Positions 16,278-34,039 of a stretch of 61,063 bases of DNA are shown piece by piece. Under the pieces are notes generated by a model. It was not told where the DNA came from. It ran no database searches and was given only the letters and a program-made list of their open reading frames with translations. This stretch comes from Anaerolineae bacterium. Its GTDB lineage: Bacteria > Chloroflexota > Anaerolineae > JAADDB01. The DNA is taken from contig WFQU01000049.1 of the NCBI GenBank assembly GCA_015486845.1, forward strand, positions 1-61,063, given 5' to 3'. Numbering within the stretch: the first letter of the stretch is position 1; each line of letters begins with the position of its first letter. The position numbers and the translations under genes are program-made.

Positions 16278-16280
16278 AAA

Positions 16281-16827
16281 GGTCTTATTTTCAGAGAGGA
16301 ATCGACCTGGGCCTGTGGCGCACCAAAGCGGATGAAAATTTACGACTGGCGTCAAGCGTTTAGGCAGCTTGGCAGCGTCAACACCGGCTAAAGCCTCGAC
16401 GCCGGTGTTGGGGAAAGTGCAGCGCTTCGCTAATAAAGATGTCATCAGGCTTATTTTTTCGCCATTATTTTTTATCTGCGTGCGCAGCCAGCGTTAATCT
16501 GCGTCCTATTTTATTTTCAAGGGAGTTATCATGGGCCTACGGCACACCACAGCGAATGAAAACCTACGGCTGGACTCGAGCCTTTAGGCGGTTTTGTAGC
16601 GTTACCCCCGGCTAAAGCCTCTACTCCGGCGCAATGGGAGCTATTTTCAGGGGAGAATCTGTTACTAATTTCTTGACCATTGTTTTTTTATCTGCGTGCG
16701 CAGCCAGCGTTAATCTGCGTCCTATTTTATTTTCAAGGGAGTTATCATGAGCCTACGGCACACCACAGCGAATGAAAATTAAGATCAGCGTGCATCAGCG
16801 TTAATCTGCGTTCTATTTTCAGAGGAG
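16281..16827 (+). repeat. Mosaic repeat array with three full bipartite sites and two half sites
   Basis: Full sites at 16286-16339, 16512-16562 and 16728-16779; half sites at 16642-16655 and 16814-16827; about 16462-16562 is nearly duplicated at 16678-16778. Confidence 0.92.
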
Positions 16828-16833
16828 ACAAAA

Positions 16834-17124
16834 ATGACGCGTATCGGCATTGGTATTGTGTTCATCATCATAGCCGGGTTTTATCCGTTTGCGGCCATGC
16901 TCCGGCTAAACAAACGGTTGGGCCGGCCGGATGGCCCAGGTCGTAACGAATTGATCGCACTCATGGTGATGCACAGCGCGTTGCCATTCGCCCTTGCTCT
17001 CATCGGTATGGGCGTGATGATCCATCGCCTGTATATCGCCCCGGCCTACCGGATCAGTGTGCTTTTCTTGTTACTGCTGGCCGCCGCAGGCGGTGGCCTG
17101 AGCCGACGGTGGAAAAAACAATGA
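16834..17124 (+). CDS. Small hypothetical membrane protein
   Basis: Three hydrophobic segments, AGAGGAG SD, ATGA coupling to next gene. Confidence 0.7.
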   Translation: MTRIGIGIVFIIIAGFYPFAAMLRLNKRLGRPDGPGRNELIALMVMHSALPFALALIGMGVMIHRLYIAPAYRISVLFLLLLAAAGGGLSRRWKKQ

Positions 17125-18248
17125 TTCCGTCAGAACACGTCTGGCGCGTGGCCATTGTACACGACTGGCTCAATCAAATTGGCGGTGCGGAGTATGTTTT
17201 GGAAGTGCTCAAAGAGATATTTCCGGCTGCGCCGGTGTTCACCAGCATTTATGATCCCAAGCGGATGCCGGATGCTTACCGTCAATGGGAAATCCATACT
17301 TCGTGGTTGAACAAACTGCCGGGCATAGCAGCCCACCATCAATGGTACTTGTCCCTCTTCCCGTTGGCATTCGAGGAATTCGACTTCAGCGGCTTCGACT
17401 TAGTCATCAGTAACAAAAGTGCCTTCAGCCACAGCGTTATCACGCCGCCGGAGACAGAACATATTAGCTACTGTCTCACGCCGACCCGCTTCCTGTGGCA
17501 ATATCAAGCTTATCGACAACGGGAAGGATTAGGGCGCTTGGCTAACGCGCTTTTTAGGCGGACGCTGCACAACCAGCGCCAGTTTGACCGCTTAGCGGCT
17601 GACCGGGTCGATCATTTCATCGCTATTTCCCGGGCCGTACAAGCACGCATCCAAAAGTATTATCGCCGGGAAAGTGTGGTCATTTACCCGCCGGTGAACA
17701 CAGATGCTTTTCAGCCCACCGTTCATCCCAGCGCCGACTATTTCTTAGTCTCCTCACGGCTAATCCCATACAAACGGATCGACTTAGCCGTCCAGGCGTG
17801 CACGAACCTAAACCTACCACTGGTTGTGGCGGGAGAAGGGCGGGATAGTGCTTACTTGCGGCGCGTGGCCGGCCCGACGGTACGATTTCTTCCCCGGCAG
17901 CCGCTGGCCAAATTGCGCACACTCGTGCAAAATTGTCGTGCTTTCCTCTTCCCCGGCCTGGAAGATTTCGGAATCACGCCGGTGGAAGCGATGGCCGCCG
18001 GCCGGCCGGTGATCGCATTTGCCGGAGGTGGCGCGTTGGATACAATTGTAAATGGTGTTACTGGAGAGTTCTTCCACGAACCGACTGTGGAAAGTCTGGT
18101 GGACGTGCTACAATCTTTCGATCCGGCGGATTACGATCCGGCCGCCTGCCGGGCACAAGCTGAGCAATTCGCCAAGGAAAAGTTTCAAGCGAAACTGCTG
18201 ACTTTTATCAACGAAGTCATGGAACGCAGAGCGCAGCAAAGGAAATAA
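17121..18248 (+). CDS. GT4 glycosyltransferase
   Basis: VHDWLNQIGGAE, RLIPYKRID, EDFGITPVEAMAAGRPV. Confidence 0.92.
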   Translation: MIPSEHVWRVAIVHDWLNQIGGAEYVLEVLKEIFPAAPVFTSIYDPKRMPDAYRQWEIHTSWLNKLPGIAAHHQWYLSLFPLAFEEFDFSGFDLVISNKSAFSHSVITPPETEHISYCLTPTRFLWQYQAYRQREGLGRLANALFRRTLHNQRQFDRLAADRVDHFIAISRAVQARIQKYYRRESVVIYPPVNTDAFQPTVHPSADYFLVSSRLIPYKRIDLAVQACTNLNLPLVVAGEGRDSAYLRRVAGPTVRFLPRQPLAKLRTLVQNCRAFLFPGLEDFGITPVEAMAAGRPVIAFAGGGALDTIVNGVTGEFFHEPTVESLVDVLQSFDPADYDPAACRAQAEQFAKEKFQAKLLTFINEVMERRAQQRK

Positions 18249-18249
18249 C

Positions 18250-18933
18250 ATGGAGCTCAAATTATACTGGAAAATCTTCTGCCGGCGTTGGTGGCTAACG
18301 GCACTTATTGTCTTCTTGGCTGCTCTAACCCTACCGTTCCACCAAAACCTGCCGCCCTCCTATCACGCCGCAATGCGTTTCTTAGTAGGCGTCAAGCCGG
18401 ACATCACCTCGCCTAACGCGTACGATTACGATCGCTATTACACCTGGCGGACGGCGGAATATCTCATTGACGACTTGAGCGAAGTGGTACGGGGCAGCGT
18501 TTTCAGCCAGGCCGTGCAACAGCAGTTACAACAAGATGGTGCTGCCGCCAAGATTGCGGCAGTGACTATCCAGGGTAGCACGCAAACCAGCAAACTGCAC
18601 CGGTTGCTCCATATCGGTATTGATGGGCCAAACAAGTCTGACGTGAGCGCCATTGCTGCGGCCACACAGAAAGTGTTGGAAAACGAAGTTACTCGTTTCT
18701 TTCCCGAGGCGTACGCTCGGGGAGCGACAGTCATCCTGGTGGATGGGCCGCACATTAGCCGCAACGCACCGGGCCTACGAGAAAAACTGGCCATGCCGAT
18801 GCGTCTCTTTTTAGCGTTGTTGGCCGGATTGTTGGGTGAATTCCTATTGTACTATTTAGATGACCGCATTTGGGAACGGAGCGACCTGGAAACATTTGGC
18901 TGGACCGTGATCGCCGAGATACCCCGTAGTTAA
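18250..18933 (+). CDS. Wzz/CpsC-like polysaccharide co-polymerase
   Basis: MELKLYWKIFCRRWWL, two TM helices, YLDDRI..DLE..G.TVIAEIP tail. Confidence 0.75.
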   Translation: MELKLYWKIFCRRWWLTALIVFLAALTLPFHQNLPPSYHAAMRFLVGVKPDITSPNAYDYDRYYTWRTAEYLIDDLSEVVRGSVFSQAVQQQLQQDGAAAKIAAVTIQGSTQTSKLHRLLHIGIDGPNKSDVSAIAAATQKVLENEVTRFFPEAYARGATVILVDGPHISRNAPGLREKLAMPMRLFLALLAGLLGEFLLYYLDDRIWERSDLETFGWTVIAEIPRS

Positions 18934-19062
18934 ACGGAGCAGCCTGCCCCGGCAAAGAGCTTGCCGCACACAGGACAACAATGGTAAAATATCGTGGTCA
19001 ACCGGTTGGCGGGAAAGCTTGGGGATGCTATCAAGATATCACCTCTCCAAGGAGGGAAATTA

Positions 19063-19740
19063 GTGGAATTTAAAGAATATTATGCTATTTTGCGTAAACA
19101 TGGCTGGATCATCGTTGTATTAGCCCTGCTTTCCGGCGTAGCCGGCTATAAACTGAGCAGCTTACAAGAACCGCTGTATCGAGCTTCGGTGCAGGTGCGG
19201 ATAGAACCCGTTGGCCTGGATTGGGGCCGAGCCAATGCTGTCCAGGTGTTGCTGCACAGCTACCAGGTACTTATTAAGAGCCATCAAACGGCCCAACAAG
19301 TCATCAATCGCGCCCAGTTGGATATGTCCACCGACACGCTGCTCAGCCAGATGCAAGTTAGCCCGGATGAGTCTAATTTTACGATTCGCATTGACGTGGA
19401 AAACCGAGATCCCCAAGTGGCTAAACAGATCGCCGAAACGACGGCCAATGTTTTTATCGCTAACCGCCAAGCCTGGAACCAAAATCAACAACGAAATAGT
19501 CAAGTGGACGTATCGATAAGAGATTACGTGCGCCATGTTCCGCAAATTCGTCCTAAGCCCAAAATCAATGCCTTGGCCGGGCTCATTTTAGGTGGTATCG
19601 TCGGCATACTAATCGTCTTACTTTTGGAATGGATCGAAGCGGATATCCTGCGCACGCCAGAAAAAGTGGAACGACAATTAGCCTTGCCGGTGCTGGGCGG
19701 CATTCCGTCTTCCAAAAAAGCTGAAGGGAGCCATTCATGA
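19063..19740 (+). CDS. Wzz/CpsC-like polysaccharide co-polymerase
   Basis: Two TM helices, PKPKIN Pro motif, VERQLALPVLGGIP tail; GTG 19063 follows AAGGAGG. Confidence 0.82.
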   Translation: MEFKEYYAILRKHGWIIVVLALLSGVAGYKLSSLQEPLYRASVQVRIEPVGLDWGRANAVQVLLHSYQVLIKSHQTAQQVINRAQLDMSTDTLLSQMQVSPDESNFTIRIDVENRDPQVAKQIAETTANVFIANRQAWNQNQQRNSQVDVSIRDYVRHVPQIRPKPKINALAGLILGGIVGILIVLLLEWIEADILRTPEKVERQLALPVLGGIPSSKKAEGSHS

Positions 19741-20396
19741 ACCTCATCACTTTACAAGACAGCCGTTCGCCTGTGGCTGAGGCATACCGTACTTTGCGCA
19801 CGAATTTAGAATTTGCTAATGCCGAAGCGCCGTTGCGCAGTGTCGTGGTCGCAGCGCCCACGGCGGAGCCGGATATTGCTGAGCTGGTGGCTAATTTAGG
19901 CGTTACGTTTGCCAAGACCGGCCGCAAGGTCATTTTGGTGGAAGGTGACTTGCGGCAGCGAAAATTGCACACCTTTTTTGGATTGCACAATGATGTTGGT
20001 TTGACCTCGCTGGTGCGAGAAGGTAGCACTTTGGAAGCAGCGTTGCAAGAGAGCGGCGTGCCTAATGTACAGGTGTTGACGGCTGGGCCGGCGACAGATA
20101 GTCCTACAGATATTTTGGACGCTCGCCAGCTTGAAAAAGCGTTGGATCGCATGCACGAAATAGCGGATTGGACTCTTTTTACCGCGCCACCGCTCTTGAC
20201 TTTTAGTGATGGCGTCATTTTGGGGCACCACGCGGATGGTATTTTGTTGGTCGTGCGTGCTGGCAGAACGCACCGCAGCGCCGCGCTGCGCGCCAAGCAA
20301 ATTTTAGAACGGGTTCATGTGCGCCAGATTGGCGTTGCCATGCTTAATAGCCCTGTGCAACGCGACGCAATAGATTACATCAAAAGTAAAGGATAA
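19737..20396 (+). CDS. CpsD/CapB-like tyrosine-kinase homologue with degenerate Walker motifs
   Basis: SPVAEAYRTLRTNL, ANLGVTFA, ADGILLVVRAGRT; no GK[ST]. Confidence 0.85.
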   Translation: MNLITLQDSRSPVAEAYRTLRTNLEFANAEAPLRSVVVAAPTAEPDIAELVANLGVTFAKTGRKVILVEGDLRQRKLHTFFGLHNDVGLTSLVREGSTLEAALQESGVPNVQVLTAGPATDSPTDILDARQLEKALDRMHEIADWTLFTAPPLLTFSDGVILGHHADGILLVVRAGRTHRSAALRAKQILERVHVRQIGVAMLNSPVQRDAIDYIKSKG

Positions 20397-20402
20397 TCGG
20401 GA

Positions 20403-21470
20403 ATGAAAGGATTAGTGCTCAGCGGCGGTAAAGGAACGCGTCTGTATCCCATCACTTACACCCGAGCCAAACAGTTGGTGCCGGTGGCCAACAAGCCGGT
20501 TCTATTCCGGGTTATCGAATCCATCAGGGACGCTGACATTGAGGAAATTGGCATCGTAGTGGGCAACACTGCCGCCGAAATACAAGAAGTCGTCGGTGAT
20601 GGCAGCCGCTGGGGTGTTCGCATTACTTACATCCCGCAGGAAGCCCCGCTGGGCCTGGCCCATGCAGTGAAGATCAGCCAGGACTTCTTGGGCGATAACA
20701 ATTTTGTTATGTTCTTGGGCGATAATGTCATTCAAGGTGGCATTTCTAAACTCATTCGTGATTTTGAGACCAATGCCTATAACGCTCAGGTCGTGCTGAA
20801 GAAGGTTAGCGAGCCGCAGCATTACGGCGTGGCAGAATTAGACGAACATGAACGGATCCGCCGCCTGGTGGAAAAACCACGCCAGCCCCAAAGTGATTTA
20901 GCTTTGGTAGGCATTTATATGTTCGACCCCAATATTTTCCAGGCTGTCCAGGCTATCAAGCCGTCATGGCGCGGGGAATTAGAAATTACTGACGCTATCC
21001 AATGGTTGGTGGAAAATGGCTTTGACGTGCACCCTTACGTGCATAAAGGGTGGTGGATTGACACTGGCAAGCCTATTGACATGCTAGAAGCGAATAACCG
21101 CGTGCTGTTGGAAATTGTGCCGAACGTGGCCGGCTATATCGATCGTGATTCAGATGTAGACGCCCGGGTTACTATTGAGGCGGGTGCAGAAGTGATCAAC
21201 AGCGTTGTGCGCGGTCCTACCATTATTGGGAGCAATAGCCGTTTGATAAACGCCTATGTTGGTCCTTTTACGTCTATTTACCACGATTGTCTGCTGGAAA
21301 ATGTGGAAATCGAGCACAGTATTGTCATGGAACAGTGCACGCTGAAAAATATTCCCAACCGCATTGAGGATAGTCTCATTGGGCGTAACGTGGAAATCAG
21401 CCACTCGGCTATCAAGCCGCGGGCGTATAAGCTGACCATTGGTGACAACAGTCAGTTGGGATTGTTGTAA
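20403..21470 (+). CDS. rfbA: Glucose-1-phosphate thymidylyltransferase (long form)
   Basis: LSGGKGTRLYPIT..AKQLVPVANKP, PLGLAHA, LGDN, RGELEITDA, hexapeptide tail. Confidence 0.9.
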   Translation: MKGLVLSGGKGTRLYPITYTRAKQLVPVANKPVLFRVIESIRDADIEEIGIVVGNTAAEIQEVVGDGSRWGVRITYIPQEAPLGLAHAVKISQDFLGDNNFVMFLGDNVIQGGISKLIRDFETNAYNAQVVLKKVSEPQHYGVAELDEHERIRRLVEKPRQPQSDLALVGIYMFDPNIFQAVQAIKPSWRGELEITDAIQWLVENGFDVHPYVHKGWWIDTGKPIDMLEANNRVLLEIVPNVAGYIDRDSDVDARVTIEAGAEVINSVVRGPTIIGSNSRLINAYVGPFTSIYHDCLLENVEIEHSIVMEQCTLKNIPNRIEDSLIGRNVEISHSAIKPRAYKLTIGDNSQLGLL

Positions 21471-22243
21471 TGGTGCGTTCTTTTCCTGAGTTAGCGGCTC
21501 AACGGTGGCATATCTGGCGGCATCCTCTGGAACATGATGGACTATCTTGCCCAAACTGGCAACGCTTAGCGCCTATTTATCGCTTGCGCCTGACTGATAC
21601 GTTGCCACAGCGTCAGCGAAAATTGCGGCAGTTGATGGTTTTCTTGCATCAGCGTTTTATTCGCTTGCAAGAAGCCTGGCCGGCGTGGGACGAGTTCGAT
21701 GTCGGCGCTTATTTTGATCTCTATCCGGATCAAGCGACAGCGCTGTGCGAGACCAGGGTGCATAACGGTAAGTTGCAAGTCGTTTTCTTCGTCGATATGC
21801 TCATGCCGTCTTTCCGCCGGGCGCTGCACTACTGGCAAACAGTGGTCGTGCCGGCCTACAAACAAGTAGAACCATCGTTAGCTGGCCCGGTTAGCCGGCC
21901 CACTTCACTGCAACAGGTGCTGGGCACGGCTTTCGACAACGACATCATGCCGGAATTTGATGCCCTCTATCTGGAGGCACACACTGCCATGTTACAAAGT
22001 ATACGCCCCTTGGCCCAGTCCGGTGATGTACATTTCTTGGCCCATAGCGCTGCTTGTTTAGAACGTCTGCGCGTGGCCAAAGCTTATCGCAAAGCCGGGC
22101 CAAATCAGATTGCAACCAAATTAGATCAGGTTCCCACGCTTACGCTGGAACACACCATTGTTATTGCGCACAATGTTCGACGACGACGCCAGATGCGTTT
22201 GGCGCGTTACCGGGATAGACTGAAACATCATTGGGCGCTATAG
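21470..22243 (+). CDS. Hypothetical protein
   Basis: 257-aa ORF coupled to rfbA by TAATG; no motif recognised. Confidence 0.65.
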   Translation: MVRSFPELAAQRWHIWRHPLEHDGLSCPNWQRLAPIYRLRLTDTLPQRQRKLRQLMVFLHQRFIRLQEAWPAWDEFDVGAYFDLYPDQATALCETRVHNGKLQVVFFVDMLMPSFRRALHYWQTVVVPAYKQVEPSLAGPVSRPTSLQQVLGTAFDNDIMPEFDALYLEAHTAMLQSIRPLAQSGDVHFLAHSAACLERLRVAKAYRKAGPNQIATKLDQVPTLTLEHTIVIAHNVRRRRQMRLARYRDRLKHHWAL

Positions 22244-22294
22244 CTACAAAGTCATAAAATTTGTGGTAACTACTCAATCATCGTCAAAGAGAAC

Positions 22295-22385
22295 ATTGAT
22301 TACGCAGAGTTCACGCAGATAAATTAGACAAAAGTAGAGGGAATTAGCGTTTATCTGTATCACCTGCGCCGTATTGTCGGGGATG
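22295..22385. repeat. Degenerate CGCAGAT/ATCTGCG module
   Basis: Resembles 6530-6615 and 54340-54445. Confidence 0.55.
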
Positions 22386-22425
22386 CTGCGTTGTCAGAAA
22401 TTGTGCCTACCCACAAGGAGGAGAA

Positions 22426-23670
22426 ATGACAGTAATAAGAGCGTTTACTGGTATTCGGCCGCGAGCGGATAGGGTTGGACAAGTTGCCAGTCCGCCCTAC
22501 GACGTGATGAATGCTGCAGAAGCCAAACAAATGGCCGGGAACAACGATGCTTCATTTCTGCATGTTGTAAAAGCCGAAATCGATTTTCCCGACGGCACCG
22601 ACCCACACAGCGACGTAGTTTACCAAAAGGGGGCAGAAAATTTGCAAAAGCTGCTCGCTCGGGGCATTCTGCAACGCGATGTTCAACCCAGTTTGTATCT
22701 CTACGAGCAGACTATGGGCGAGCACCGACAACGCGGCATCATAGCGGCAGTCAGCGTGGCGGAATACGAGCAGGGAATTATCAAGAAACACGAATTGACC
22801 CGCCCGGATAAAGAGGATGACCGGACCCGGCATATCGACATTCTCAACGCCCATACTGGACCGGTGATGTTAACTTATCGAGCAAAGCCCAAAATAGACC
22901 GACTTAGCGATGAAATCTGTGACACGACAGTACCCGTTTACGATTTCGTGGCGCGGGATAATGTTCGCCATCGATTTTGGGTCGTTTCCGATCCGGCGCC
23001 AATCGCCGCCTTGCAAGCGTGTTTCCAAGAAGTCGCGGCGTTGTACATCGCTGATGGGCACCACCGCAGCGCAGCTGCGGCGCGGGTGGCCGCATTGCGC
23101 CGGGCGCACAACCCTCACCATACCGGGCAGGAACCGTATAACTACTTCTTGGGTGTCCTTTTCCCCCACGATCAATTGCAGATTTTGGGCTATTACCGGG
23201 CTATTAAAGATTTGAACGGACTCGATCCGGATACTTTCCTGAGCAAAATAGCCACACTGTTCGATGTGACGACCACCGACACGCCGATTCCCTCGGAGAA
23301 ACACCAATTTGGCATGTACTTGGACGGCCAATGGTACCGGTTAGTCGCTAAAGCGGATACTTTCACGCCGAACGATCCGGTGCAGAGCTTGGACGTCTCC
23401 ATTTTGCAGGAAAACCTCATCTGCCCGATTTTGGACATCCAATCGCCGCGCACGGACCAACGTATTGCTTTCATCGGTGGCATTCGCGGCAGCAAAGCGC
23501 TGGAACAACGGTGCCATGAAGACATGCGGGTTGCGTTTACTTTGTATCCAACCAGCGTTGAGCAATTAATGGACATCGCGGACAGTGGCGCTATTATGCC
23601 TCCTAAGTCCACCTGGTTCGAGCCTAAACTCTATTCTGGCGTCGTGGTGCATAGCTTGAGCGAAGCATAA
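22426..23670 (+). CDS. DUF1015 family protein
   Basis: ASPPYDV, IKKHELTR, YIADGHHR, MPPKSTWFEPKL. Confidence 0.9.
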   Translation: MTVIRAFTGIRPRADRVGQVASPPYDVMNAAEAKQMAGNNDASFLHVVKAEIDFPDGTDPHSDVVYQKGAENLQKLLARGILQRDVQPSLYLYEQTMGEHRQRGIIAAVSVAEYEQGIIKKHELTRPDKEDDRTRHIDILNAHTGPVMLTYRAKPKIDRLSDEICDTTVPVYDFVARDNVRHRFWVVSDPAPIAALQACFQEVAALYIADGHHRSAAAARVAALRRAHNPHHTGQEPYNYFLGVLFPHDQLQILGYYRAIKDLNGLDPDTFLSKIATLFDVTTTDTPIPSEKHQFGMYLDGQWYRLVAKADTFTPNDPVQSLDVSILQENLICPILDIQSPRTDQRIAFIGGIRGSKALEQRCHEDMRVAFTLYPTSVEQLMDIADSGAIMPPKSTWFEPKLYSGVVVHSLSEA

Positions 23671-23684
23671 CACGTCAGGGCGGA

Positions 23685-24221
23685 CCTGAAAAACGAGAGC
23701 AGAAAAGGGGCCCCCTATCCCTCAACCTTGGGGGGGCAACACACCCCCAGAATTGGGGGCCGGGGGGCGCACGGAGCTCAAAGCTCCGTGCTACAGGGTA
23801 AGGAAGCCCGCTGAAGCGGGCTTAGGTTTTACGTAGCCCGGCGGCTTTCAGCCCCGGACAATGGGTGCGGCTGTCGCCAAGCCTTTAGGTGGGTTGGTGG
23901 GTCTACCACTGGCTAAAGCCTCGATGCCGGTACGTTAATTGATTTTGAGAAAACTATTTTCGTATTGCTGGCCTAATGTATTTGAGATCAGCGTGTATCA
24001 ACGTTGATCAGCGTTCTGTTTTCCGGAGGAAAGGGTAGCCGAAGGCATTGCCTTCGGCTACCCTCCAGAGAAGTTTATTTTCAAAGGAGTCGGCATGAGC
24101 CTACGGCACACCACAGCGGATGAAAATCTACGACTGGCGTCGAGCCTTTAGGCGGCTTGGTAGCGTCAACACCGGCTAAAGCCTCCACTCCGGTACCGTG
24201 GCGTTCTATTTTCAAGAGGAG
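23685..24221 (+). repeat. Mosaic repeat array
   Basis: CCCCCAGAATTGGGGG, GCACGGAGCT-CAA-AGCTCCGTGC, AAGCCCGCT-GA-AGCGGGCTT and GGCTAAAGCC (x2) modules; full site 24076-24127, terminal half site 24207-24221. Confidence 0.9.
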
Positions 24222-24226
24222 TGACT

Positions 24227-26020
24227 ATGGAGTCAACAAACCTGTATCCGTTATATCGATATTTACAAGCTTATAATATTTCCCTGCCTTCATTCTCTCC
24301 GGACGGTCAACATGTGATTTTCCTGACCGACGTCACTGGCCTGCCGCAATTATGGGAATTGCCATTGCCAGGCGGCTGGCCCCGGCAACGCACTTTCGAG
24401 ATGGAAAGAATCGCTTTCGGCCAATACAGTCCCACGAGGACACAGTTGGTCTACGGCCAAGACGAAGGCGGCAATGAGAAGATGCAAATCTGGATGTTGG
24501 ATGCCGATGGACGCCAACGGCAGCTCACTAACGATCCCAACGCAATTCACCATTTCGGTGCTTGGTCACGCGACGGCCGGCAAATCGCTTTTTCCCACAA
24601 TGAGCGTAACGGCCGCGATTTCGATATCGCTGTCATGGATATCGCCACCGGTCAGCGCCGGGAAGTGTATCGGGGCGAGCGTCTCATGCTGCCTACGGAC
24701 TGGTCGCCGCACCAGCGCTATTTAGTGGTGCAACAGAACCATGTGCCTTTCAACCACGACCTCTACCTGCTCGATTTGGTAGATGGCCAGGCCCGGCAGC
24801 TCACGCCACATGACGGTGACGCCCGTTATTTGCACCCCACTTTCGCGCCGGATGGACATTCTCTCTACCTGATCAGCGATAAGGGTCGGGAATTCTTAAC
24901 GCCGGCCCGCCTGGACTTGCCGGATGGCGCATTACACTTTTTATTCGAGACAGATTGGGACGTGCCGGAAATGGTTGTCAGCCGGGATGGCATGTGGCTC
25001 GTTTATGTTATCAACGAGGATGGCACCTTCCGGCTGCACAGCCGGCATTTGGCTGACGGGCAGGAAAACATTGTTAATGACCTGCCGGCCGGCGTCATGA
25101 GCGGCTTAGCCTTTAGCCAGAACAACCGGCAAGTCGCATTCCAGCTAGACGGCCCCCAGAACCCACCCGATATCTGGCTATACGACGTACAAAGCGGTCA
25201 GACACGCCGGCTCACCCAAAATAGTCGGGGCGGCATCCCCGCCGAGGCGCTACAGGCGCCAACACTAATTCACTATCCCACTTTCGATGACCTCCAGATA
25301 CCCGCTTTTTTCTATCGGCCTAATAATGGCCCCGAACGACCACCTTGCATCGTCTATGTGCACGGTGGCCCGGAGAGCCAATTTCAGAACAAATACGAGC
25401 CGGTGTTGCAATACTTCGTGCAGCGCGGGTTTGCTGTTCTGGCCACCAATGTGCGCGGTTCCACCGGCTATGGCCGCACGTATACCCATTTGGACGACGT
25501 GGAAAAGCGGTTGGACAGCGTCGCTGATTTAGCCCACGCTGTTTATTGGCTGCGGCAACGTGGCGCCGTGCAACCAGATCGTATCGGCATCATGGGACGA
25601 AGCTATGGCGGCTTCATGGTTCTGGCCGCGGTGACGCACTATCCGGAGCTCTGGCAAGCTGCCGTGGACATCGTTGGTATCGCCAACATGGTTACTTTTC
25701 TGGAAAACACTAGCCCGTGGCGGCGTCACCTGCGTGAAGCAGAATATGGCAGCTTGGCCCACCATCGCGAACTTTTAGCGCGTATTTCGCCTATCCACAT
25801 GGTTGATCACATCACAGCCCCTATGTTAGTGATCCACAGCGATAACGATACTCGGGTGCCCATCGGCGAAGCGGAGCAGATCGTGGCTGCGCTTCGCGAT
25901 AGGCGACATCCGGTTGAATATCTTCACTATGCCAACGAGGGACACCAAATGGTGCATTTAGAGAACAAGATCGACGCGTATCGTCATACGGCTGATTTCT
26001 TGGCCAAATTTTTGGCGTGA
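24227..26020 (+). CDS. S9-family peptidase
   Basis: Propeller repeats (FSPDG, WSRDG), VHGGPE, NVRGSTGYG, GRSYGG, NDTRV, EGH. Confidence 0.93.
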   Translation: MESTNLYPLYRYLQAYNISLPSFSPDGQHVIFLTDVTGLPQLWELPLPGGWPRQRTFEMERIAFGQYSPTRTQLVYGQDEGGNEKMQIWMLDADGRQRQLTNDPNAIHHFGAWSRDGRQIAFSHNERNGRDFDIAVMDIATGQRREVYRGERLMLPTDWSPHQRYLVVQQNHVPFNHDLYLLDLVDGQARQLTPHDGDARYLHPTFAPDGHSLYLISDKGREFLTPARLDLPDGALHFLFETDWDVPEMVVSRDGMWLVYVINEDGTFRLHSRHLADGQENIVNDLPAGVMSGLAFSQNNRQVAFQLDGPQNPPDIWLYDVQSGQTRRLTQNSRGGIPAEALQAPTLIHYPTFDDLQIPAFFYRPNNGPERPPCIVYVHGGPESQFQNKYEPVLQYFVQRGFAVLATNVRGSTGYGRTYTHLDDVEKRLDSVADLAHAVYWLRQRGAVQPDRIGIMGRSYGGFMVLAAVTHYPELWQAAVDIVGIANMVTFLENTSPWRRHLREAEYGSLAHHRELLARISPIHMVDHITAPMLVIHSDNDTRVPIGEAEQIVAALRDRRHPVEYLHYANEGHQMVHLENKIDAYRHTADFLAKFLA

Positions 26021-26262
26021 AAAGCCGGCATGGGCCGGCGGCCTGCCTGTGCAGGCAACGCAGACAGGCGCACTACAGCGGATGAGAATCTCTTGATAAG
26101 ATTGGGGATAGCGGGCTTGAGAATTTTAGTGTTGTCGCCGTGAGCTTGTCTGAGCTTGATAGTAACCAATGTATGAGTCGGGTCTAAGAACAGGGCGCTT
26201 TGTATTGCCAGCGTAATATATTTTGAGATCAGCGTGCATCAGCGTTCCACTTTTTAAGGAGG
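26021..26262 (+). repeat. Repeat array starting with a right half site that carries a 27-nt hairpin insert
   Basis: CCGGCATGGGCC..[CCTGCCTGTGCAGGCAACGCAGACAGG]..CACTACAGCGGATGAGAAT; later parts resemble 59909-59933 and 23960-24000. Confidence 0.8.
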
Positions 26263-26269
26263 TAAGGCC

Positions 26270-27415
26270 ATGGATTTCGCGTTCAATGAAGAACAACAAT
26301 TTTTGCACGATACGTTACACGATTTTGTTGCAAAAGAGGTCAAGCCGCAAGCCCGGCACGTGGATGAAACAGGAGAATTCCCTTGGGACATAATCCAAAA
26401 ACTGGGTGCTATGGGCATGTTGGGGCTCAACATCCCGGAGGCATATGGTGGCGCCGGTGCCGATGAACTGAGTGTAGCTATTTTCTTAGAAGAATTGGGC
26501 CGGGGCTGCGGTTCCACCGGACTCATCAGCGAGGCCCATCTCTGTTTAGCTGCGGCAGCTATCAACCTTTTCGGAAGTGAAGCACAAAAGCAGCGCTATT
26601 TGACGCCGTTGGCCCGGGGCAAAGTGTTGGGCGCGTTGGGTTTGACCGAGCCCGGCACAGGCAGCGACTTGCAAGGTATCCGCACCACAGCCCGGCGGGA
26701 CGGCGACGAATGGATCATCAATGGCAGCAAAATGTGGATGACTAACGGCGGCGTAGCGGGAACGGCCGTGTTACTCTGCCGCACCAAAGCGGAGCGAAGT
26801 AGTCATAGCCTGAGCCAGTTCATTGTGCCCACCGATACCCCCGGCTTCCAAGCCGGGCCGCCGGAAAAGAAAATGGGGTTGCACGGCTGCTGGAGCCACG
26901 CGGTGAGTTTGGACGATGTGCGCGTGCCGTTAGACCATCTGCTGGGCGCAGAAGGGAAAGGGCTACAACAAACATTGGCTGTTCTGGACGGTGGGCGTAT
27001 CGGTATCGGGGCCCTCAGCGTCGGTCTGGGACAAGCAGCCTTGGAGGAAGCTATCGGCTATGCCAGGCAGCGGGAAACTTTCGGCCGCCCCATCGCTGAG
27101 CACCAGGCGATCCAGTTCAAATTGGCCGACATGGCCACGAAAGTGCACATTGCCCGGCAAGCGCTTTATTATGCCGCTTGGCGCAAAGAACAGGGATTAC
27201 CGTTCAGCAAAGAAGGCGCTATGGCCAAGCTCTTTGCCACAGAGATGGCTGAAGAAGTCGCCTACCAGGCCATCCAAATCCACGGCGGCTATGGCTACAG
27301 CCACGAATATCCGGTAGAACGCATTTACCGGGATGCCAGGCTGATGACTATCGGCGAGGGTACTAGCGAAGTGCAGCGGATGGTCATTGCTCGACGGATA
27401 ATCAAAGGCCGCTGA
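26270..27415 (+). CDS. Acyl-CoA dehydrogenase
   Basis: LTEPGTGSD, NGSKMWMTN, RETFGRPI, IHGGYGY, IGEGTSEVQR. Confidence 0.95.
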   Translation: MDFAFNEEQQFLHDTLHDFVAKEVKPQARHVDETGEFPWDIIQKLGAMGMLGLNIPEAYGGAGADELSVAIFLEELGRGCGSTGLISEAHLCLAAAAINLFGSEAQKQRYLTPLARGKVLGALGLTEPGTGSDLQGIRTTARRDGDEWIINGSKMWMTNGGVAGTAVLLCRTKAERSSHSLSQFIVPTDTPGFQAGPPEKKMGLHGCWSHAVSLDDVRVPLDHLLGAEGKGLQQTLAVLDGGRIGIGALSVGLGQAALEEAIGYARQRETFGRPIAEHQAIQFKLADMATKVHIARQALYYAAWRKEQGLPFSKEGAMAKLFATEMAEEVAYQAIQIHGGYGYSHEYPVERIYRDARLMTIGEGTSEVQRMVIARRIIKGR

Positions 27416-27561
27416 GTTCGCAAACTACGGCTCTTTGTGCTACATTTCGGAATGGGAAAACTCATTAGAAGAGCAGGATGCACCGGCTCTGATCACCGTT
27501 ACTGGCGTCTTGCTCGAAACAGGTTGAGCAATAACGAAAATAAAGACGAAGGGGTAAAATC

Positions 27562-28494
27562 ATGCGTATTGTCGTCACCGGCGGCGCCGGCTTTGTCGGC
27601 TCCCATTTATGCGATCGGTTGTTGGCCGAAGGACATTCGGTTATTGCAATGGATAATCTCATCACCGGCAGCACTGATAACATCGCCCATCTTTCCAGCA
27701 ACAAGAATTTCCAATTTATTTACCATGACGTGACAGAATATATCTATATCGCCGGGGAAGTGGATGGCATTTTCCACTTGGCTTCTCCCGCTAGCCCCAT
27801 TGACTTTCCCACTTTGCCTATCCAAATTATGAAAGTGGGCGCTTTGGGCACCCACAAGGCGTTAGGTTTAGCCAAAGCGAAAGGAGCTCGGTTTTTAATG
27901 GCATCTACTTCGGAGGTGTATGGTGACCCAGAAGTGCATCCCCAACCAGAAAGTTATTGGGGGCACGTCAATCAAATTGGCCCGCGCGGCGTTTACGACG
28001 AAGCCAAACGTTTCGCTGAAGCGCTGACCATGGCTTACCATCGCATCCATAATGTGGACACGCGTATTATTCGCATTTTCAACACGTATGGGCCCCGGAT
28101 GCGGCTCAAAGATGGCCGTGTCGTGCCTAATTTCATGACGCAAGCGCTGCGAGGCCAGCCCCTGACCGTTTATGGTGACGGCAGCCAGACCCGCTCTTTC
28201 ACCTACGTGTCCGATTTGGTCGGAGGGATGTATCGGCTGTTCATGTCGGACGAAATCACGCCGGTGAATGTCGGTAACCCGGTGGAATACAGCATTCGCC
28301 AATTTGCTGATCTTGTGAACCAGGTCACCGGCAACAGCGCCGGCGTTACTTTCTTGCCGCTGCCCAAAGATGATCCGAAACGCCGCCGCCCGGACATCAG
28401 CAAAGCGCGCCGAGTACTCGGCTGGGAACCACAAGTGTCCCTATCCGAAGGATTGCAACGCACCGTGACCTATTTCCGAGCAGCGATGAAGTAA
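27562..28494 (+). CDS. UDP-glucuronate decarboxylase family SDR
   Basis: [55 protein letters not shown]. Confidence 0.92.
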
Positions 28495-28633
28495 GTATAC
28501 AAAGTATACAGATCGTTGGAAAGCTACCGGGGCTCCCGCAAAGCCGCGGTACGGTGATTTTTAGCCACGTCCGTACTTTATTTCGTCAATTATGATGATA
28601 TGATGTCGTATAGCTAAAGATAACACAGTCCGT

Positions 28634-29026
28634 TTAAATATACAGCGGTCCTGGTCCCGGTGGCTTGGGCCGCGCTGCTTCTTCGCCTGGCTCAACAAAT
28701 ACCATCGGGAACGATTTTGTTTCCTGAGCCAATATTTCATTATCTCTGCTTAAAGTGACTTCTAAGCGGTACGTTTCTCCCTCTTGAGGTTCTGAGCGCA
28801 GGTGCAATGTGACGGAGATATTGAAATCTCTATTTTCTATGATGTTGAACTCACTCAGCCGCCGGCCTTCCGGTGCATACAGGGTCGCTTCGACATTAGG
28901 ATACTTGCTAAACGGGGAGAGGTCAATGCGTACCCACAACTTCGTTAAATCCGGATAGGGATAAATCAATAAACGTTCGATCTTTGGGGTAGTTTCTTCA
29001 ATCTCCGGCACAGGGAAATCTGCCAT
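28634..29026 (-). CDS. Hypothetical protein
   Basis: 130-aa ORF with AAGGAG SD. Confidence 0.75.
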   Translation of the reverse strand: MADFPVPEIEETTPKIERLLIYPYPDLTKLWVRIDLSPFSKYPNVEATLYAPEGRRLSEFNIIENRDFNISVTLHLRSEPQEGETYRLEVTLSRDNEILAQETKSFPMVFVEPGEEAARPKPPGPGPLYI

Positions 29027-29144
29027 AATGTTTTTGTTCTCCTTGAAAGAAACGGGTTCCTCTGTTACAATTCGGAATGTCTTTCATTAACCACAAATAA
29101 CATTGTAGCGCAACTATCATCCGCTTGTCTATTTCGAGAACGCG

Positions 29145-30149
29145 TTGACACTTCAAGGAGAGAGCACTATGCATCGTTGCCAGTCTGGAATCGTTATCTT
29201 TTTATCTTTGCTTCTGGCTATTGTCATGCCAATTACCGTACAGGCTGACGAAACGACTATAACGTATCAAGTACATGCAGGCGAAACATTGGTTAGTATT
29301 GCTCAGCTTTTTGGCACGGATGTGGGCTATTTAATGCAGCTCAACGGTTTGCGTGCCCCGAACTTTATTTGGGCGGGGAAGAAACTCATCGTGCCGCAAC
29401 CGACGGCCACGCCAACGCCGGATTATTATGTTGTCAGGGTTGGCGATACATTAAGCAGCATCGCGTTGCGGTTTCATCTCACAGTGCCTCAATTAATGAC
29501 CCTGAACGACCTACGTTCCAGTTACTATATTTGGATTGGCCAACATTTGCGTGTTCAGGGCCTAGTCACTGAACCTTCGCCTCCTTCGGACGAAGATATT
29601 ACATATAGGGAACATGTCGTGCAGTGGGGAGAGACGCTTGCCAGCATCGCCGCACAGTACAATGTGAACCCGGCTGACATTATTGCCGCGAACAGCTTGC
29701 GCAACGCGAACTATGTCTGGGCCGGACAAAAGTTGCGCATTCCGCAACGAGGCGGCAATCCGCTGCCGCCGCCGGCTGCACCACATCCCATCAGCAGCGG
29801 CAAATGGATAGATGTCAACGTGACCACGCAACGTATTGTGGCCTACACCGGAAGCATGCCGGTTTTTTCGACCAGCGTCAGCGGCGGTACGCCGGCGCAT
29901 CCCACTGTTTTAGGAACGTATCACATTTACCTGAAATTGCCGTCACAGCGCATGACTGGCCCGGGCTACGATTTGCCCCATGTACCATGGGTCATGTACT
30001 TTTATAGCGGCTACTCTTTTCACGGCACTTACTGGCATCACAATTTTGGTTATCCCATGAGCCACGGTTGCCTGAACATGCGCACTCCAGAAGCACAATG
30101 GCTCTATCAATGGGCTCCTTTAGGGACGGCCGTCTTTGTGCACCAGTAA
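29145..30149 (+). CDS. LysM (x3) L,D-transpeptidase (YkuD domain)
   Basis: Signal peptide, three LysM repeats, HGTYWH..SHGCLNM catalytic motif; ATG 29169 after AAGGAG is an alternative start. Confidence 0.92.
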   Translation: MTLQGESTMHRCQSGIVIFLSLLLAIVMPITVQADETTITYQVHAGETLVSIAQLFGTDVGYLMQLNGLRAPNFIWAGKKLIVPQPTATPTPDYYVVRVGDTLSSIALRFHLTVPQLMTLNDLRSSYYIWIGQHLRVQGLVTEPSPPSDEDITYREHVVQWGETLASIAAQYNVNPADIIAANSLRNANYVWAGQKLRIPQRGGNPLPPPAAPHPISSGKWIDVNVTTQRIVAYTGSMPVFSTSVSGGTPAHPTVLGTYHIYLKLPSQRMTGPGYDLPHVPWVMYFYSGYSFHGTYWHHNFGYPMSHGCLNMRTPEAQWLYQWAPLGTAVFVHQ

Positions 30150-30156
30150 TGTGTGC

Positions 30157-30261
30157 TTACTGTTCCATTTCTTTGAGCATGGCAGCGGTCTCGCCCAAAG
30201 TAGAGCCGGAAACCAGTTCCGATAGTGTTTCGGGATCGCCAAAATAGCCAATAGCTGCCAT
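30157..30261 (-). pseudogene. Possible nitroreductase C-terminal remnant
   Basis: AAIGYFGDPETL-SELV resembles the nitroreductase tail AIGYxGDPxxL...LSELV from recall; abuts a repeat junction. Confidence 0.35.
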
Positions 30262-30291
30262 GATGTACTGGTTTTCCTTCCTCTTGAGGTG

Positions 30292-30681
30292 CTTCTTTGA
30301 AAATAGAACGCTGATCAACGCTGATGCGCGCTGATACACGCTGATCGCAAATATATAACTCCAGCAATACGAAAATATTTTTCTCAAAATAAGTTGACGC
30401 AGCGGCGTAAAGGCGCAGAGCGTCTAAAAAACCAGGCTCCCTTTAAGAAGTTCAACTTCTTCAAGAAGTTGAACTTCTAATTGACAGAAAGGAACCGGCG
30501 TTGAGCAGCTTCTTGGCAGCGGGCGCTACCTTGATGTACCCCGCCGCCGCGCCGGCATTGATGCTTTAGCCAGTTGTAGACCCACCAATACGCCTAAAGG
30601 CTTGACGCCAGTCGCATCATTTTTAGCCGCTGTGGTGTGCCGCCCGCACAGGCAGTCTGCAGGCTCATGTCGACTCCAAGA
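30292..30681 (-). repeat. Mosaic repeat array (reverse orientation)
   Basis: Right half site 30620-30681 directly after the aminotransferase stop, GGCTAAAG module, double palindrome 30446-30478, terminal CTATTTTCAAAGAAG at 30292-30306. Confidence 0.88.
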
Positions 30682-31824
30682 CTAAGCCGCGGCGATAACC
30701 GCCAGCGTCCGGTCTATTTCCGCATGGCTATTGTAAAAGTGCGGCGAGACTCGAATGAAATTACCGCGTTGGGAAATAATAACACCTGCTGTAGAAAGCT
30801 TGGCTGCCAAAGCCGCAGGATCATCTTTCGGCACGAATGAAACAATGCCGGACCGTTCGGATTCGTGTTCGTGTGGTGAAATCACTGTCAAATCCAAGCG
30901 TTCTAGGCCGGTAAGTAGGTGCTCTGTTAATTCCAGCACCCGCCGGCTGATATCCTCCACACCCCAGTCTAAGAAGTGTTGTACGTTCTGGTTCAAGCCC
31001 AGCAGCATAAGTGGGGCAATGGATCCTTCTTCATAGCGGGTGGCATCGTGCCGAAAAGGAGAGTCATAGCGGAAAAAGTCACGCCAATCCTCTACGCCGA
31101 CCCAGCCTGTCATGATCAGGTCTAACTCGTCTAGTCGCTCCTGACGGATGTAAAGAAAGCCAAAGCCAACTGGTCCTAAAAGCCATTTGGCGCTTCCGGC
31201 CGATAGGAAATCTACCGGTGTTTGCTGCACATCCACAGGGAAGACGCCTAAGCCTTGGATGGCATCGACGCAGAAAAGCGCACCGCCCCGGTGCACGATA
31301 TCTGCTAAAGTATCCAAGTCGTTGCGATAGCCGGTTGCGAATTCGACAAAACTCAATGTCACTAAGCGCGTGCGGCTATCCATAGCTGCTGCAACGCTCT
31401 GCGGGAGGATACGGTTGTTTTCTGCTTTCACGAAGCGTACTTCCACGCCTTTGCGTCGCAAGTTTTCCCAGGGGTAGACGTTGGCCGGAAATTCGGTTTC
31501 GGCGCACACGACATTATCTCCGGCTTGCCATGGCAAGCCGGCCGCCACGATATTCAATCCATGGGACGTGTTACGGGTGAAGGTAACTTCTGTTTCTTGC
31601 CGAGCGTTGATGAGCCTGGCCACGTTGCCTCGGGTCGTTCCGTAAATCCGATCTTCCCATTCACCTTGTATGGCTAATCCTCCCGTCAGGCTGCGCGCAG
31701 CCAAAAAAGATTGCATCATCTGTGCTGTGCTGCGAGGCACGGGGCCAATGGAGGCATGATTAAGGTATGTGTAGCGCTCCGTTACGGGAAAATCTTGTCG
31801 AATGGCTTCCAAATTGTCCAACAT
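30682..31824 (-). CDS. Class V PLP aminotransferase (cysteine-desulfurase-like fold)
   Basis: YLNHASIGP, NTSHG, VDAIQ, SAKWLLGP (PLP Lys), RVSPHFYN; ATG 31824 follows AAGGAG. Confidence 0.9.
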   Translation of the reverse strand: MLDNLEAIRQDFPVTERYTYLNHASIGPVPRSTAQMMQSFLAARSLTGGLAIQGEWEDRIYGTTRGNVARLINARQETEVTFTRNTSHGLNIVAAGLPWQAGDNVVCAETEFPANVYPWENLRRKGVEVRFVKAENNRILPQSVAAAMDSRTRLVTLSFVEFATGYRNDLDTLADIVHRGGALFCVDAIQGLGVFPVDVQQTPVDFLSAGSAKWLLGPVGFGFLYIRQERLDELDLIMTGWVGVEDWRDFFRYDSPFRHDATRYEEGSIAPLMLLGLNQNVQHFLDWGVEDISRRVLELTEHLLTGLERLDLTVISPHEHESERSGIVSFVPKDDPAALAAKLSTAGVIISQRGNFIRVSPHFYNSHAEIDRTLAVIAAA

Positions 31825-32099
31825 GAATAACCTTCTCCTTTTTAGCTCATTTATGATACGGCTGTTGCCCGTCACGATAATGTGCACGCCGCCATCTCTT
31901 CTTAACGGTGCTACTTTCTGGTGTCGGTGTGATTTTTGCAGCGTTAGCGTCATGCAGGGTAAGGGGGAATATCGAAAAAATATTATGGCACGAGCTTGCG
32001 CCACTGGCAAACTTTGCTGTTCACATTCGATGCTACTGTCTCGAGGCTATCGCTATGCGCCGGGTCAAATTTGGAATGGCTGTTATAGCATCTGCTTGA

Positions 32100-32139
32100 T
32101 TGACAAGCTTTTCGATAACCGTTAGACTATGGTTATAAT
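32100..32139 (+). promoter_or_regulatory. Sigma70-type promoter
   Basis: TTGACA (32100-32105), 17 nt, TAGACT (32123-32128); also TATAAT at 32134-32139. Confidence 0.6.
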
Positions 32140-32140
32140 T

Positions 32141-32885
32141 AATTTTAGAGAAGTTGGCGTGGGCCTTCGGCCTGCCTGTGCGGGCACGCAGACAGGCGCG
32201 CCACAGCGGCTGAAAAACGCCCTTTATCCCCCAACCTTAGGGGGAGCAAAAGGTAGAAAGGAAAGGGAAAAGGGGTAGCAGACCTTCTTACTGTCCCGAT
32301 TATCTATTTTCTACCTCCCATCCTCCCCTTGCCAGCGCGGCGGCGGGGTGCGTCAAGGTAGCGTCCGCTGCCAAGGGGCTACTCAACACTAGCCCCCTTT
32401 TCTAAGTGGCTTATCATTTACGTAGCACGGAGCTCAAAGCTCCGTGCGCTCGGGCGGAGAACGCCGGCGATTAGAAGTTCAACTTCTTCAAGAAGTTGAA
32501 CTTCTTGAAGGAGGCCCGATTTTTTTAGACGCTATGCGCCTTGGCGACGCTGCGTCAACTGATTTTGAGGAGAGTTTGTCATTGCGAGACCCGGCAGGGC
32601 CATGGCAATCTTCCTCACTGGCGTTGGAGATTGCTTGACCAAAAAGAGGGTCACACTGTCGCTTCGCTCGCAATGACGCGACTGATTTGAAGGCGTTGCG
32701 TCAGCTATCTTTCAGGGGTGATCTTTCCCCCAAGCTGTGCTGCGCTTAGCTTTTTCCCCTCCCTGTATCGGGGAGAGAAGGCTTGTTACCTCTTTGGGAG
32801 GTAAGCCAGGGGAGAGGTCTTATTTTCAATAGAGGCCATTTTTTAACCATTGTTTTTTTATCTGTGTGCGCAGCCTGCGTCCCAT
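32141..32885 (+). repeat. Mosaic repeat array
   Basis: Site with 26-nt insert 32141-32216, palindromes 32425-32447 and 32473-32505, block 32572-32828 closely matching 207-463. Confidence 0.9.
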
Positions 32886-32951
32886 CGTTCTCTTTGGAGA
32901 GAGTACGAACAGCCAGTTTGCTCTCACAGAACTATCATCCACAGGGATCAT

Positions 32952-33752: not shown

Positions 33753-33855
33753 TAAAAAAGCAATGAGCCACCCTAACCTGGACGTCAGGATCAAAAGGGT
33801 TGCCCCCCATAATATCATGATAACATGCCTGGGAACATTAGAGAACATTGCTGAT

Positions 33856-33884
33856 TTGGCAAGGAAGAGGCTTGTCTATATAAT
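33856..33884 (+). promoter_or_regulatory. tRNA promoter
   Basis: TTGGCA, 17 nt, TATAAT, 12 nt upstream of the tRNA. Confidence 0.7.
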
Positions 33885-33896
33885 TACCGTTGTTTT

Positions 33897-33984
33897 GGAG
33901 AGGTCGCATAGTCTGGCCTAGTGCGCGCGCCTGGAGAGCGCGTAGGGTCTTTGGCCCTCGTGGGTTCGAATCCCACCCTCTCCG
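33897..33984 (+). tRNA. tRNA-Ser(GGA)
   Basis: Acceptor GGAGAGG/CCTCTCC, anticodon arm CGCGC-CTGGAGA-GCGCG, long variable arm, GGTTCGAATCC, G discriminator; CCA not encoded. Confidence 0.97.
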
Positions 33985-33988
33985 CTGA

Positions 33989-34024: not shown

Positions 34025-34039
34025 GGTTTAGGCTGTTTT

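Follow-up and report, generated by a model that had tools for sequence, protein, structure and literature searches.

A repeat unit directly ahead of a peptidase gene

The DNA considered here, called the window, is a contig of 61,063 nucleotides from an uncultured member of the Anaerolineae, whose genome (G000) is a metagenome bin of 3.28 Mb in 182 contigs. Several of its genes are separated by arrays of short, noncoding repeats. The subject of this report is one type of repeat unit within these arrays, a complete copy of which is seen at 24076-24229, directly ahead of a gene. The unit consists of a 5' head that lies right after ARRGGAG and holds a hairpin of variable length, a variable body, and a 3' end reading TATTTTCARRGGAG. 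This last is a 14-mer that ends in GGAG, and any 14-mer of its type is called a joint below; the head is what a preliminary description of this DNA, made from the letters alone, had called the right half site. In the sense orientation, the unit separates the Shine-Dalgarno (SD) core of a gene from the spacer and start codon that belong to this gene, and it supplies the GGAG that the downstream gene now uses. Units are arrayed head to tail, and every joint combines one unit's end with the next one's start.

To briefly walk through the array on the plus strand, its first repeated base lies 28 nt past the stop codon of a DUF1015 gene. The remainder of the array upstream of the complete unit (23698-24075) is made of G/C-rich modules, a hairpin of the repetitive extragenic palindromic (REP) type at 23868-23933, the second of its kind here, a module with a 10-nt period, ATCAGCGT, at 23982-24023, a joint variant, TGTTTTCCGGAGGA, and the hairpin module GGGTAGCC...GGCTACCC. 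An internal joint, TATTTTCAAAGGAG, follows at 24076-24089; it is the 3' end of the previous hairpin module, has a head directly after it, and was the "full site" of the preliminary description. The noncoding head, 38 nt long and reading TCGGC-ATG-AGCC...GGCACACCACAGCGGATGAAAAT (24090-24127), is the conserved 5' end of the unit. The body is a REP-type imperfect hairpin, GAGCCTTTAGGCGG...CCGGCTAAAGCCTC (24128-24197). The terminal joint, TATTTTCAAGAGGAG (24207-24221), carries in its GGAG the SD of the next gene, and the similarity to other repeats stops there. What remains (24222-26020) is a gene-specific spacer, TGACT, and a prolyl oligopeptidase (S9) gene that starts at ATG 24227. The fold of 24076-24229 is not above shuffles (z = -0.52). 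Among the relatives compared, none has an orthologous empty allele at this junction (array 23671-24226); the closest named DUF1015 relative, from an Anaerolineae metagenome-assembled genome (73% identity), has no synteny here, and in genome G003 a different gene lies upstream of the peptidase.

The repeat ends at the ribosome-binding site

How often does the 14-mer occur, and where? With up to one mismatch, TATTTTCARRGGAG is matched 10 times in the window, where 100 shuffles lead one to expect 0.03, and the eight exact copies are all on the plus strand. The source genome as a whole holds 268 exact copies and none of a reversed control. A relaxed pattern finds 407 copies, of which 388 lie far enough from contig ends to be scored for a start codon, that is, for an ATG, GTG, or TTG 3 to 11 nt past the motif that opens a reading frame of at least 80 amino acids (aa). 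Such a start follows 133 of the 388, and the other 255 have no adjoining start; with the range set at 2 to 12 nt, the count is 140 of all 407. The spacing from motif to start peaks at 6 to 7 nt, within the 5 to 8 nt that the preliminary description had predicted. In an alignment of the copies on their GGAG, information content stays maximal up to the last base of GGAG and drops to zero at the very next one, so the repeat ends exactly at the 3' side of the SD core and the spacer is the gene's own.

Genes in the bin were called with a simple caller of our own, which gave 2663 genes with approximate start positions; about 1 in 20 of them (~5%) uses a repeat-borne joint. These genes stay translatable, as had been claimed for the window: the arrays sit at ribosome-binding sites and the SD keeps its native spacing. 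The mean distance from GGAG to the start is 7.3 nt where the GGAG is repeat borne (n = 129) and 7.5 nt where it is native (n = 599), which is no difference (chi-square P = 0.07). The native set comes from the 1516 genes with nonrepeated upstream DNA, 599 of which have GGAG at 4 to 11 nt, mostly with AA before it. TTTTC precedes it in only 14 of these 599, so the TATTTTC part of the 14-mer is not a general feature of ribosome-binding sites in this genome. As a general rule, the link between half site and start holds in part. It is far above chance, but of 598 start-facing array edges, only about a fifth (118) extend to the SD, that is, fall between -5 and +12 nt, with starts as approximate as the calls.

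Could the repeat instead be a regulatory or translational signal, such as a regulon operator, a leader peptide, or a translation enhancer, that selection has kept at each gene? The head does contain GGAG-N5-ATG, an 11-codon reading frame (MSLRHTTADEN) is found in 36 copies, and ATCWGCGT words recur at a 10-nt spacing. Nonetheless, we hold this to be very improbable. Heads come in a short and a long form that differ by a 26-nt hairpin insert, so that no reading frame is kept between them, and heads of genome G045 have CATTCG where those of the source genome have CATGAG. Moreover, 255 of the 388 scored motif copies have no adjoining gene start, and some copies lie between convergent genes. The head was also considered as a real gene start and rejected as such, the reading frames from its ATG being mostly 11 or 18 codons long. 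Seven ATG-bearing heads open a frame of at least 80 codons by reading through further repeats, and one of these (255 codons) runs beyond its array. Inspected by eye for promoters, the modules contain no convincing -35/-10 pair.

Arrays are polarized

Orientation was counted per intergenic region, with the head, the motif, and the modules M2 and M5 taken as oriented. There are 174 co-directional regions that contain such modules, and they bear out the polarity described earlier: every oriented module is sense in 147 of them and antisense in 26, and 1 region is mixed. Counted per element, which within an array gives nonindependent counts, the ratio of sense to antisense is 113:19 for heads and 122:15 for joints. 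By class of spacer, arrays are commonest in divergent ones (69 of 254), ahead of convergent (36 of 245) and co-directional ones (174 of 1280).

The stop side is less regular. The preliminary description had the right half site close behind a stop codon at 26021, 30681, and 59846, and at these three places it is (at 4, 4, and about 25 nt, respectively), but there is no such excess genome-wide. Of the 147 heads with an upstream gene whose stop faces them, only 13 fall between -12 and +15 nt from that stop, close to what an even spread would give (by a rough estimate, ~6 per 17-nt bin). The 48 co-directional arrays with an SD-fused end have their first repeated base 12 nt or less from the upstream stop in about 18 cases, and about 13 of the arrays start with a head.

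Orthologous junctions with and without units

What do relatives have at the same junctions? In G003, the orthologues of the peptidase and the acyl-CoA dehydrogenase that follows it in the window are adjacent, with TGA, 11 nt (GGAGGGAGACC), and ATG at their border; the counterpart in the window is a 249-nt array (26021-26269) with AAGGAGG and 7 nt before the ATG. In G004, three genes, for a GT2 glycosyltransferase and for proteins of 96 and 379 aa, are syntenic with window 14793-18248. There, the junction from the GT2 gene to the small gene is TAG, 12 nt, and ATG, with an SD that overlaps the stop, and the window has a 556-nt array instead (16278-16833). The third comparison concerns an orthologous IS200-like tnpA gene, which has zero, one, or three units between GGAG and its spacer and ATG. 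Upstream of tnpA, G126 has a left-end (LE) hairpin, GGAGG, AAGAACA, and ATG; G045 has the same hairpin, AAGGAG, one 95-nt unit, ACACA, and ATG; and in G159 the same place is taken by three units of 90 nt in tandem. All three comparisons agree with what insertion at the SD would produce. The relatives are 67 to 91% identical at the protein level across the three comparisons, and the crossover is therefore not fixed to a nucleotide. The comparison with relatives thus yielded two compact stop-SD-start junctions (11 and 12 nt) and the 0/1/3 series at tnpA.

These junctions bear on an explanation that needs no targeted mobility. In it, the 14-mer is simply a good leader for ribosome binding; duplication, unequal crossing-over, and gene conversion between similar leaders enlarged the arrays, and the sense orientation and the spacing of the SD were maintained by selection. 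Several observations fit: composite blocks (M5 + head + M2) recur whole, the three tandem units of G159 are identical, most breakpoints between arrays fall at the borders of other modules (described below), and about four of five start-facing edges stop short of an SD. Unequal recombination would account for growth in tandem, but not for how units came to the junctions of 11 and 12 nt; these ancestral-type junctions leave no homology from which recombination could start. Near-identical units also precede unrelated genes, over 100 of them and spread across contigs, and the same ends occur with different bodies, in a patchy distribution, in three families. We consider this explanation unlikely.

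The unit in other Anaerolineae

The motif was surveyed across 301 genomes of the class. Its distribution is patchy: 34 of the 301 have at least one copy of the 14-mer, nine besides the source genome have five or more (among them G045 with 47, G074 with 40, G273 with 29, and G004 with 22), and the other seven sampled genomes of the same family as the source have none. G045 and G074 share with the source genome a recognizably homologous head and the same 14-mer, with different bodies between. In 20 stretches fetched from these two genomes, a start at 3 to 11 nt, with a frame of at least 80 aa or one open to the end of the stretch, follows 15 of the 23 exact copies. The same two ends thus carry different bodies in three families of Anaerolineae, and conserved ends, variable cargo, and patchy distribution are the marks of a family of mobile elements.

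One candidate for the mobilizer was a family of Y1 transposases that lies beside the unit in G045. It was rejected, its distribution not tracking that of the motif: members have matches in 103 of the 301 genomes.

An IS110-family element in the motif

Does any system recombine at the joint? On contig C2 of the source genome (about 330-2195; loci L065 and L109) lies an IS110-family insertion sequence (IS) of 1865 bp, single copy in this genome, with a noncoding left end of 385 nt and a DEDD enzyme of 433 aa. The transposase domain of the enzyme matches PF01548 at 50.3 bits against a cutoff of 29. The flanks are ...TATTTTCAGAG on one side and, on the other, GAGGAGG, ATCCAC, and the TTG of a gene with a HIT-like N terminus (named by eye). 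A copy that is 92% identical over 1842 nt lies at an unrelated locus on contig C233 of G004 (L110), between ...TTTATTTTCAGAG and GAGGAGG. Both insertions fall in TATTTTCAG-AG^GAGG, and each junction, read along the IS, has CT. Insertion at the same position with CT junctions at two loci makes the 14-mer a true recombination target for one system. Published work on this family reports that IS621 uses a CT core and that IS110 elements move via circular intermediates, guided by a bridge RNA (PMC11208160; 10.1101/2025.01.17.633520); ISPpu9 is likewise reported to insert in REP sequences and ISPpu10 in one conserved intergenic sequence.

This brings in the mechanism that the preliminary description had in mind, in which a circle with the full site recombines at its GGAG or GAAG core with a target resembling a ribosome-binding site and leaves attL and attR on the two sides. 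Taken literally, it would involve a double-stranded circle and an IS110-type bridge recombinase or an integrase. The two IS110 insertions at unrelated loci, with their CT junctions, speak for it, as do the precedents of IS621 and ISPpu9 and the resemblance of the tandem joints to element junctions. We nevertheless find it distinctly unlikely: the units share nothing with the ends of the IS beyond 7-mers, the IS has a single copy in the source genome, and heads behind stops are no commoner than an even spread would give. Guide matches between the noncoding ends of the IS and the target are also limited to 7-mers and are uninformative. The IS110 element makes use of the motif and is not where the units come from.

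Arrays as mosaics

Repeats are present in 566 of the 1779 intergenic regions of the source genome. Their arrays are mosaics of many module families with borders of their own, like bacterial interspersed mosaic elements (BIMEs), and are not strings of two half sites. A comparison of paralogous arrays within the genome, in which intervals of presence and absence were collected on both strands, gave 403 distinct intervals, with both borders at a GGAG joint in 7, one in 35, and none in 361; the corresponding numbers for a shifted control were 1, 30, and 372. Of the attL/attR reading, then, the location of the arrays at ribosome-binding sites and the compact junctions in relatives held up, but the picture of two half sites was too simple, given the mosaics, the 361 breakpoints off GGAG, and the minority of heads that lie behind stops.

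Which other modules make up the arrays? The commonest word, GAAGTTSAACTTC, is a REP, a short, imperfect, intergenic palindrome present in about 450 to 900 copies. It flanks a gene for a Y1 transposase that resembles the REP-associated tyrosine transposases (RAYTs) at the end of contig C99 of the source genome, and a broken copy of that gene on contig C73. The hairpin at 24131-24196 in the peptidase-gene array forms tandem arrays on both sides of a RAYT gene in G128, and its family turns up in 26 of the 151 genomes that were sampled from the class. A third module (AACCTGCGCAGGCAGGTTT..., M9-like) brackets an IS200-like tnpA (Y1) in G045 (locus L097). Hairpins linked to RAYT or Y1 genes are, in other words, members of the arrays. 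The head/14-mer unit itself brackets no RAYT at any of 13 Y1 loci in five motif-bearing genomes, nor at the two in the source genome; at loci L101 and L136, it is found only upstream of the Y1 gene, between GGAG and ATG.

The G128 locus (L073; contig C82, positions 560-1830), in which the RAYT gene stands between tandem hairpin arrays with a period of about 64 to 67 nt, forms a compact REPtron and belongs to another family of the class. As regards the head as a possible remnant of an IS, the multicopy proteins seen in the source genome are a transposase-like protein of about 432 aa, with several partial copies on contigs C102, C154, C157, C159, and C48, and tandem fragments of a DegT-like aminotransferase gene on C102, both named by eye.

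The edges of the unit deserve a closer look. The source genome has 326 to 342 copies of the head. In 41 copies with unique upstream DNA, ARRGGAG still precedes the head, and GGAG therefore flanks the unit on both sides. The 7-mers that flank a unit are not identical copies of each other (AAGGGAG versus AGAGGAG, for example), and its edges lie at GGAG on both sides. The hairpin of the head ranges from 3 to about 12 bp; that at the right end varies between unit types or is missing. Classical REPs carry the tag GTAG, and 18 of the 146 heads with repeated upstream DNA have GTAG instead of GGAG ahead of them, mostly right after the GAAGTTSAACTTC REP.

How might the units arrive?

The reading that we favor, with some reserve, is that the units are directional, SD-regenerating, nonautonomous elements within BIME-like mosaics of several repeat families. 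Units would come in just 3' of a GGAG that resembles an SD, and each such event would regenerate its target, which could account for repeated insertion, tandem growth, and fixed polarity. The geometry would match the single-strand transposition of HUH/Y1 enzymes as in IS200/IS605, with insertion 3' of a short word and no target duplication. That mechanism also has hairpins near the ends and a circular junction, which would correspond to the "full site," and Y1-linked REPs are neighbors of the units in the arrays. A fuller version, which we put forward only tentatively, is that these are miniature mobile elements, patchy in Anaerolineae, that land right after the GGAG of an SD in the sense orientation and end in a GGAG of their own, each insertion becoming the next target; that about 5% of the genes have had their leaders rewritten in this way; and that they are exploited by a bridge-RNA IS110 element aimed at the same word. 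An element that ends in its own GGAG would never deprive the host gene of its ribosome-binding site.

A number of observations weigh against this reading. (i) The great majority of mosaic breakpoints (361 of 403) lie away from any GGAG joint. (ii) GGAG is conserved as strongly as the head, and "target" and "element end" are for that reason inseparable. (iii) The 3' end is conserved over the 14-mer only, with no constant hairpin before it. (iv) There are 26 antisense arrays, and 36 arrays sit between convergent genes, a setting that has no SD. (v) The relatives with empty alleles are 67 to 83% identical at the protein level, which places the breakpoint only within the junction of 11 or 12 nt. 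(vi) The three identical units of G159 could have come from slippage or unequal crossing-over. (vii) Neither an autonomous copy of the unit nor an enzyme tied to it was found; the source genome has two RAYT-like Y1 matches, both tied to the GAAGTTSAACTTC REP, and no TnpB was found in it. At an E value of 1e-25, the Y1 family of G045 was not found in the source genome or in G004, nor are G074 and G273 listed as genomes that it matches; the motif is abundant in all four. (viii) A single short-read assembly underlies the order in which modules stand within arrays.

Might the arrays then be an artifact of assembling a short-read metagenome bin? Three sequencing runs contain the stretch, none of them recorded as RNA. 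Contigs of three runs break inside arrays, and a large number of the bin's contigs have an array at their start or end. Still, independent contigs cover the gene-proximal edges at 14500-16356, 16799-18008, and 24185-30324 without differences, the last of these, from run X1, bridging the whole array at 26021-26269, and the same architecture is present in other genomes. We regard an artifact as extremely improbable. The array interiors at 16356-16799 and 23752-24185 have no bridging independent contig. Over 14500-34400, the contigs of runs X1, X2, X3, and X7 end inside arrays and give no clean unit-sized joints, and a metagenome scan with the peptidase protein gave no match.

Other arrays and features of the window

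At all seven places named in the preliminary description, the array ends read as it had described them. Among the other arrays, the 556-nt one at 16278-16833 (+) starts 2 nt past the GT2 stop and extends as far as the SD of the gene for the 96-aa protein. It contains exact joints at 16512, 16642, 16728, and 16814, a variant joint near the stop (TATTTTCAGAGAGGA), three heads, and two REP hairpins; its terminal joint (16814-16827) is followed by ACAAAA and the ATG at 16834. The 249-nt array behind the peptidase (26021-26269, +) begins with a long-form head 4 nt past the stop at 26018-26020 and ends in TTTTTAAGGAGG, TAAGGCC (7 nt), and the ATG at 26270 of the acyl-CoA dehydrogenase gene. At the left end of the window, an array truncated by the contig start (1-474, +) comprises a REP palindrome, three more joints (at 51, a variant, 110, and 196), and a terminal joint at 456-469, followed by ATAAC and a GTG at 475. 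On the minus strand, the array at 30319-30681 lies behind the stop of an aminotransferase gene (30682-30684), with its head 4 nt past that stop; it is composed of TCTT-GGAG-head, a REP hairpin, and a doublet of the GAAGTTSAACTTC REP. Finally, the array at 59846-59935 (+) has a head preceded by GAAG, about 25 nt past the stop of a uridine kinase gene (59818-59820).

Internal joints are often followed by a complementary word, CCCTCC or TCTCCCC (window 24025-24075, 65-109, and 348-455). The SD-like GGAG of such joints might pair in a hairpin (GGAGAGGGTAGCC...GGCTACCCTCC; GGGGAGACCTCTCCCC), which would mask decoy ribosome-binding sites within the arrays. Downstream of a one-mismatch joint on the minus strand (30292-30305) lies a 53-codon reading frame (30157-30318, -) with a second purine-rich stretch before its ATG, a candidate small gene. 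In addition, positions 34077-34340 and 33897-33984 hold a large-type bacterial signal recognition particle (SRP) RNA (189 bits) and the transfer RNA (tRNA) that adjoins it, a region that contigs of other organisms in the runs match too. These two RNAs are all that Rfam, at its gathering thresholds, reports in the window.

Comparison with known systems

The closest likeness is to the REP, BIME, and REPIN repeats with their RAYTs in Escherichia coli and Pseudomonas (tagged GTAG or CGTC): here, too, hundreds of short intergenic hairpin repeats are arranged in mosaics, and two of the array modules stand on both sides of RAYT genes, namely the GAAGTTSAACTTC REP in the source genome and the GAGCCTTTAGGCGG hairpin in G128. 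One study already reports GTAG repeats in Chloroflexi and places REPs mainly downstream of genes, between unidirectional and convergent open reading frames, with ends that often provide a stop codon (PMC3733652). Unlike these, one unit family here is 85% sense, ends in an SD, and forms the ribosome-binding site of about 133 genes, and its head and 14-mer bracket no RAYT.

The IS200/IS605 family (IS608 and ISDra2, for example), with its miniature derivatives, inserts directionally at a short specific word without duplicating it, has hairpins near its ends, and forms a circular junction from right to left end. Its circular intermediates are reported to be obligatory and single stranded and its secondary structures subterminal (PMC6006769). 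The present units differ in that no transposase is linked to them and the right-end hairpin is not conserved, and GGAG is a putative target.

Integron cassette arrays (attI/attC) run head to tail in one orientation with a short conserved joint and are read through from upstream. The units resemble them in order, orientation, and joint. They differ in being noncoding and 60 to 300 nt long, in arrays scattered over hundreds of loci. The element on C2 is like others of the IS110/IS1111 group (IS621, ISPpu9, and ISPpu10) in its DEDD enzyme, long noncoding left end, fixed insertion point in a repeat, and CT junctions; the repeat units, in contrast, do not have its ends. The two IS110 copies and the 14-mer would make up a natural pair of target and donor for a predicted bridge recombinase.

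Other modular noncoding repeats near genes, such as the pneumococcal BOX and the Correia elements of Neisseria, can alter expression, and the start-associated sequences of cluster K mycobacteriophages are a conserved word just before start codons. To our knowledge, none of these is bounded by an SD that it regenerates. The literature searches made here found no paper on SD-bounded repeats or on Anaerolineae repeats.

What would such a system mean for its host? If insertion is truly aimed at GGAG, selfish DNA could enter operons without polar damage, and the genome would have a natural source of portable leaders that could change the translation of many genes at once. The SD, if the units do land there, would be a safe harbor that renews itself. 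Intergenic repeats of the REP, BIME, and MITE (miniature transposable element with inverted repeats) kinds are usually described as lying behind genes or as scattered without regard to translation signals; here, one type of unit is tied to the ribosome-binding site.

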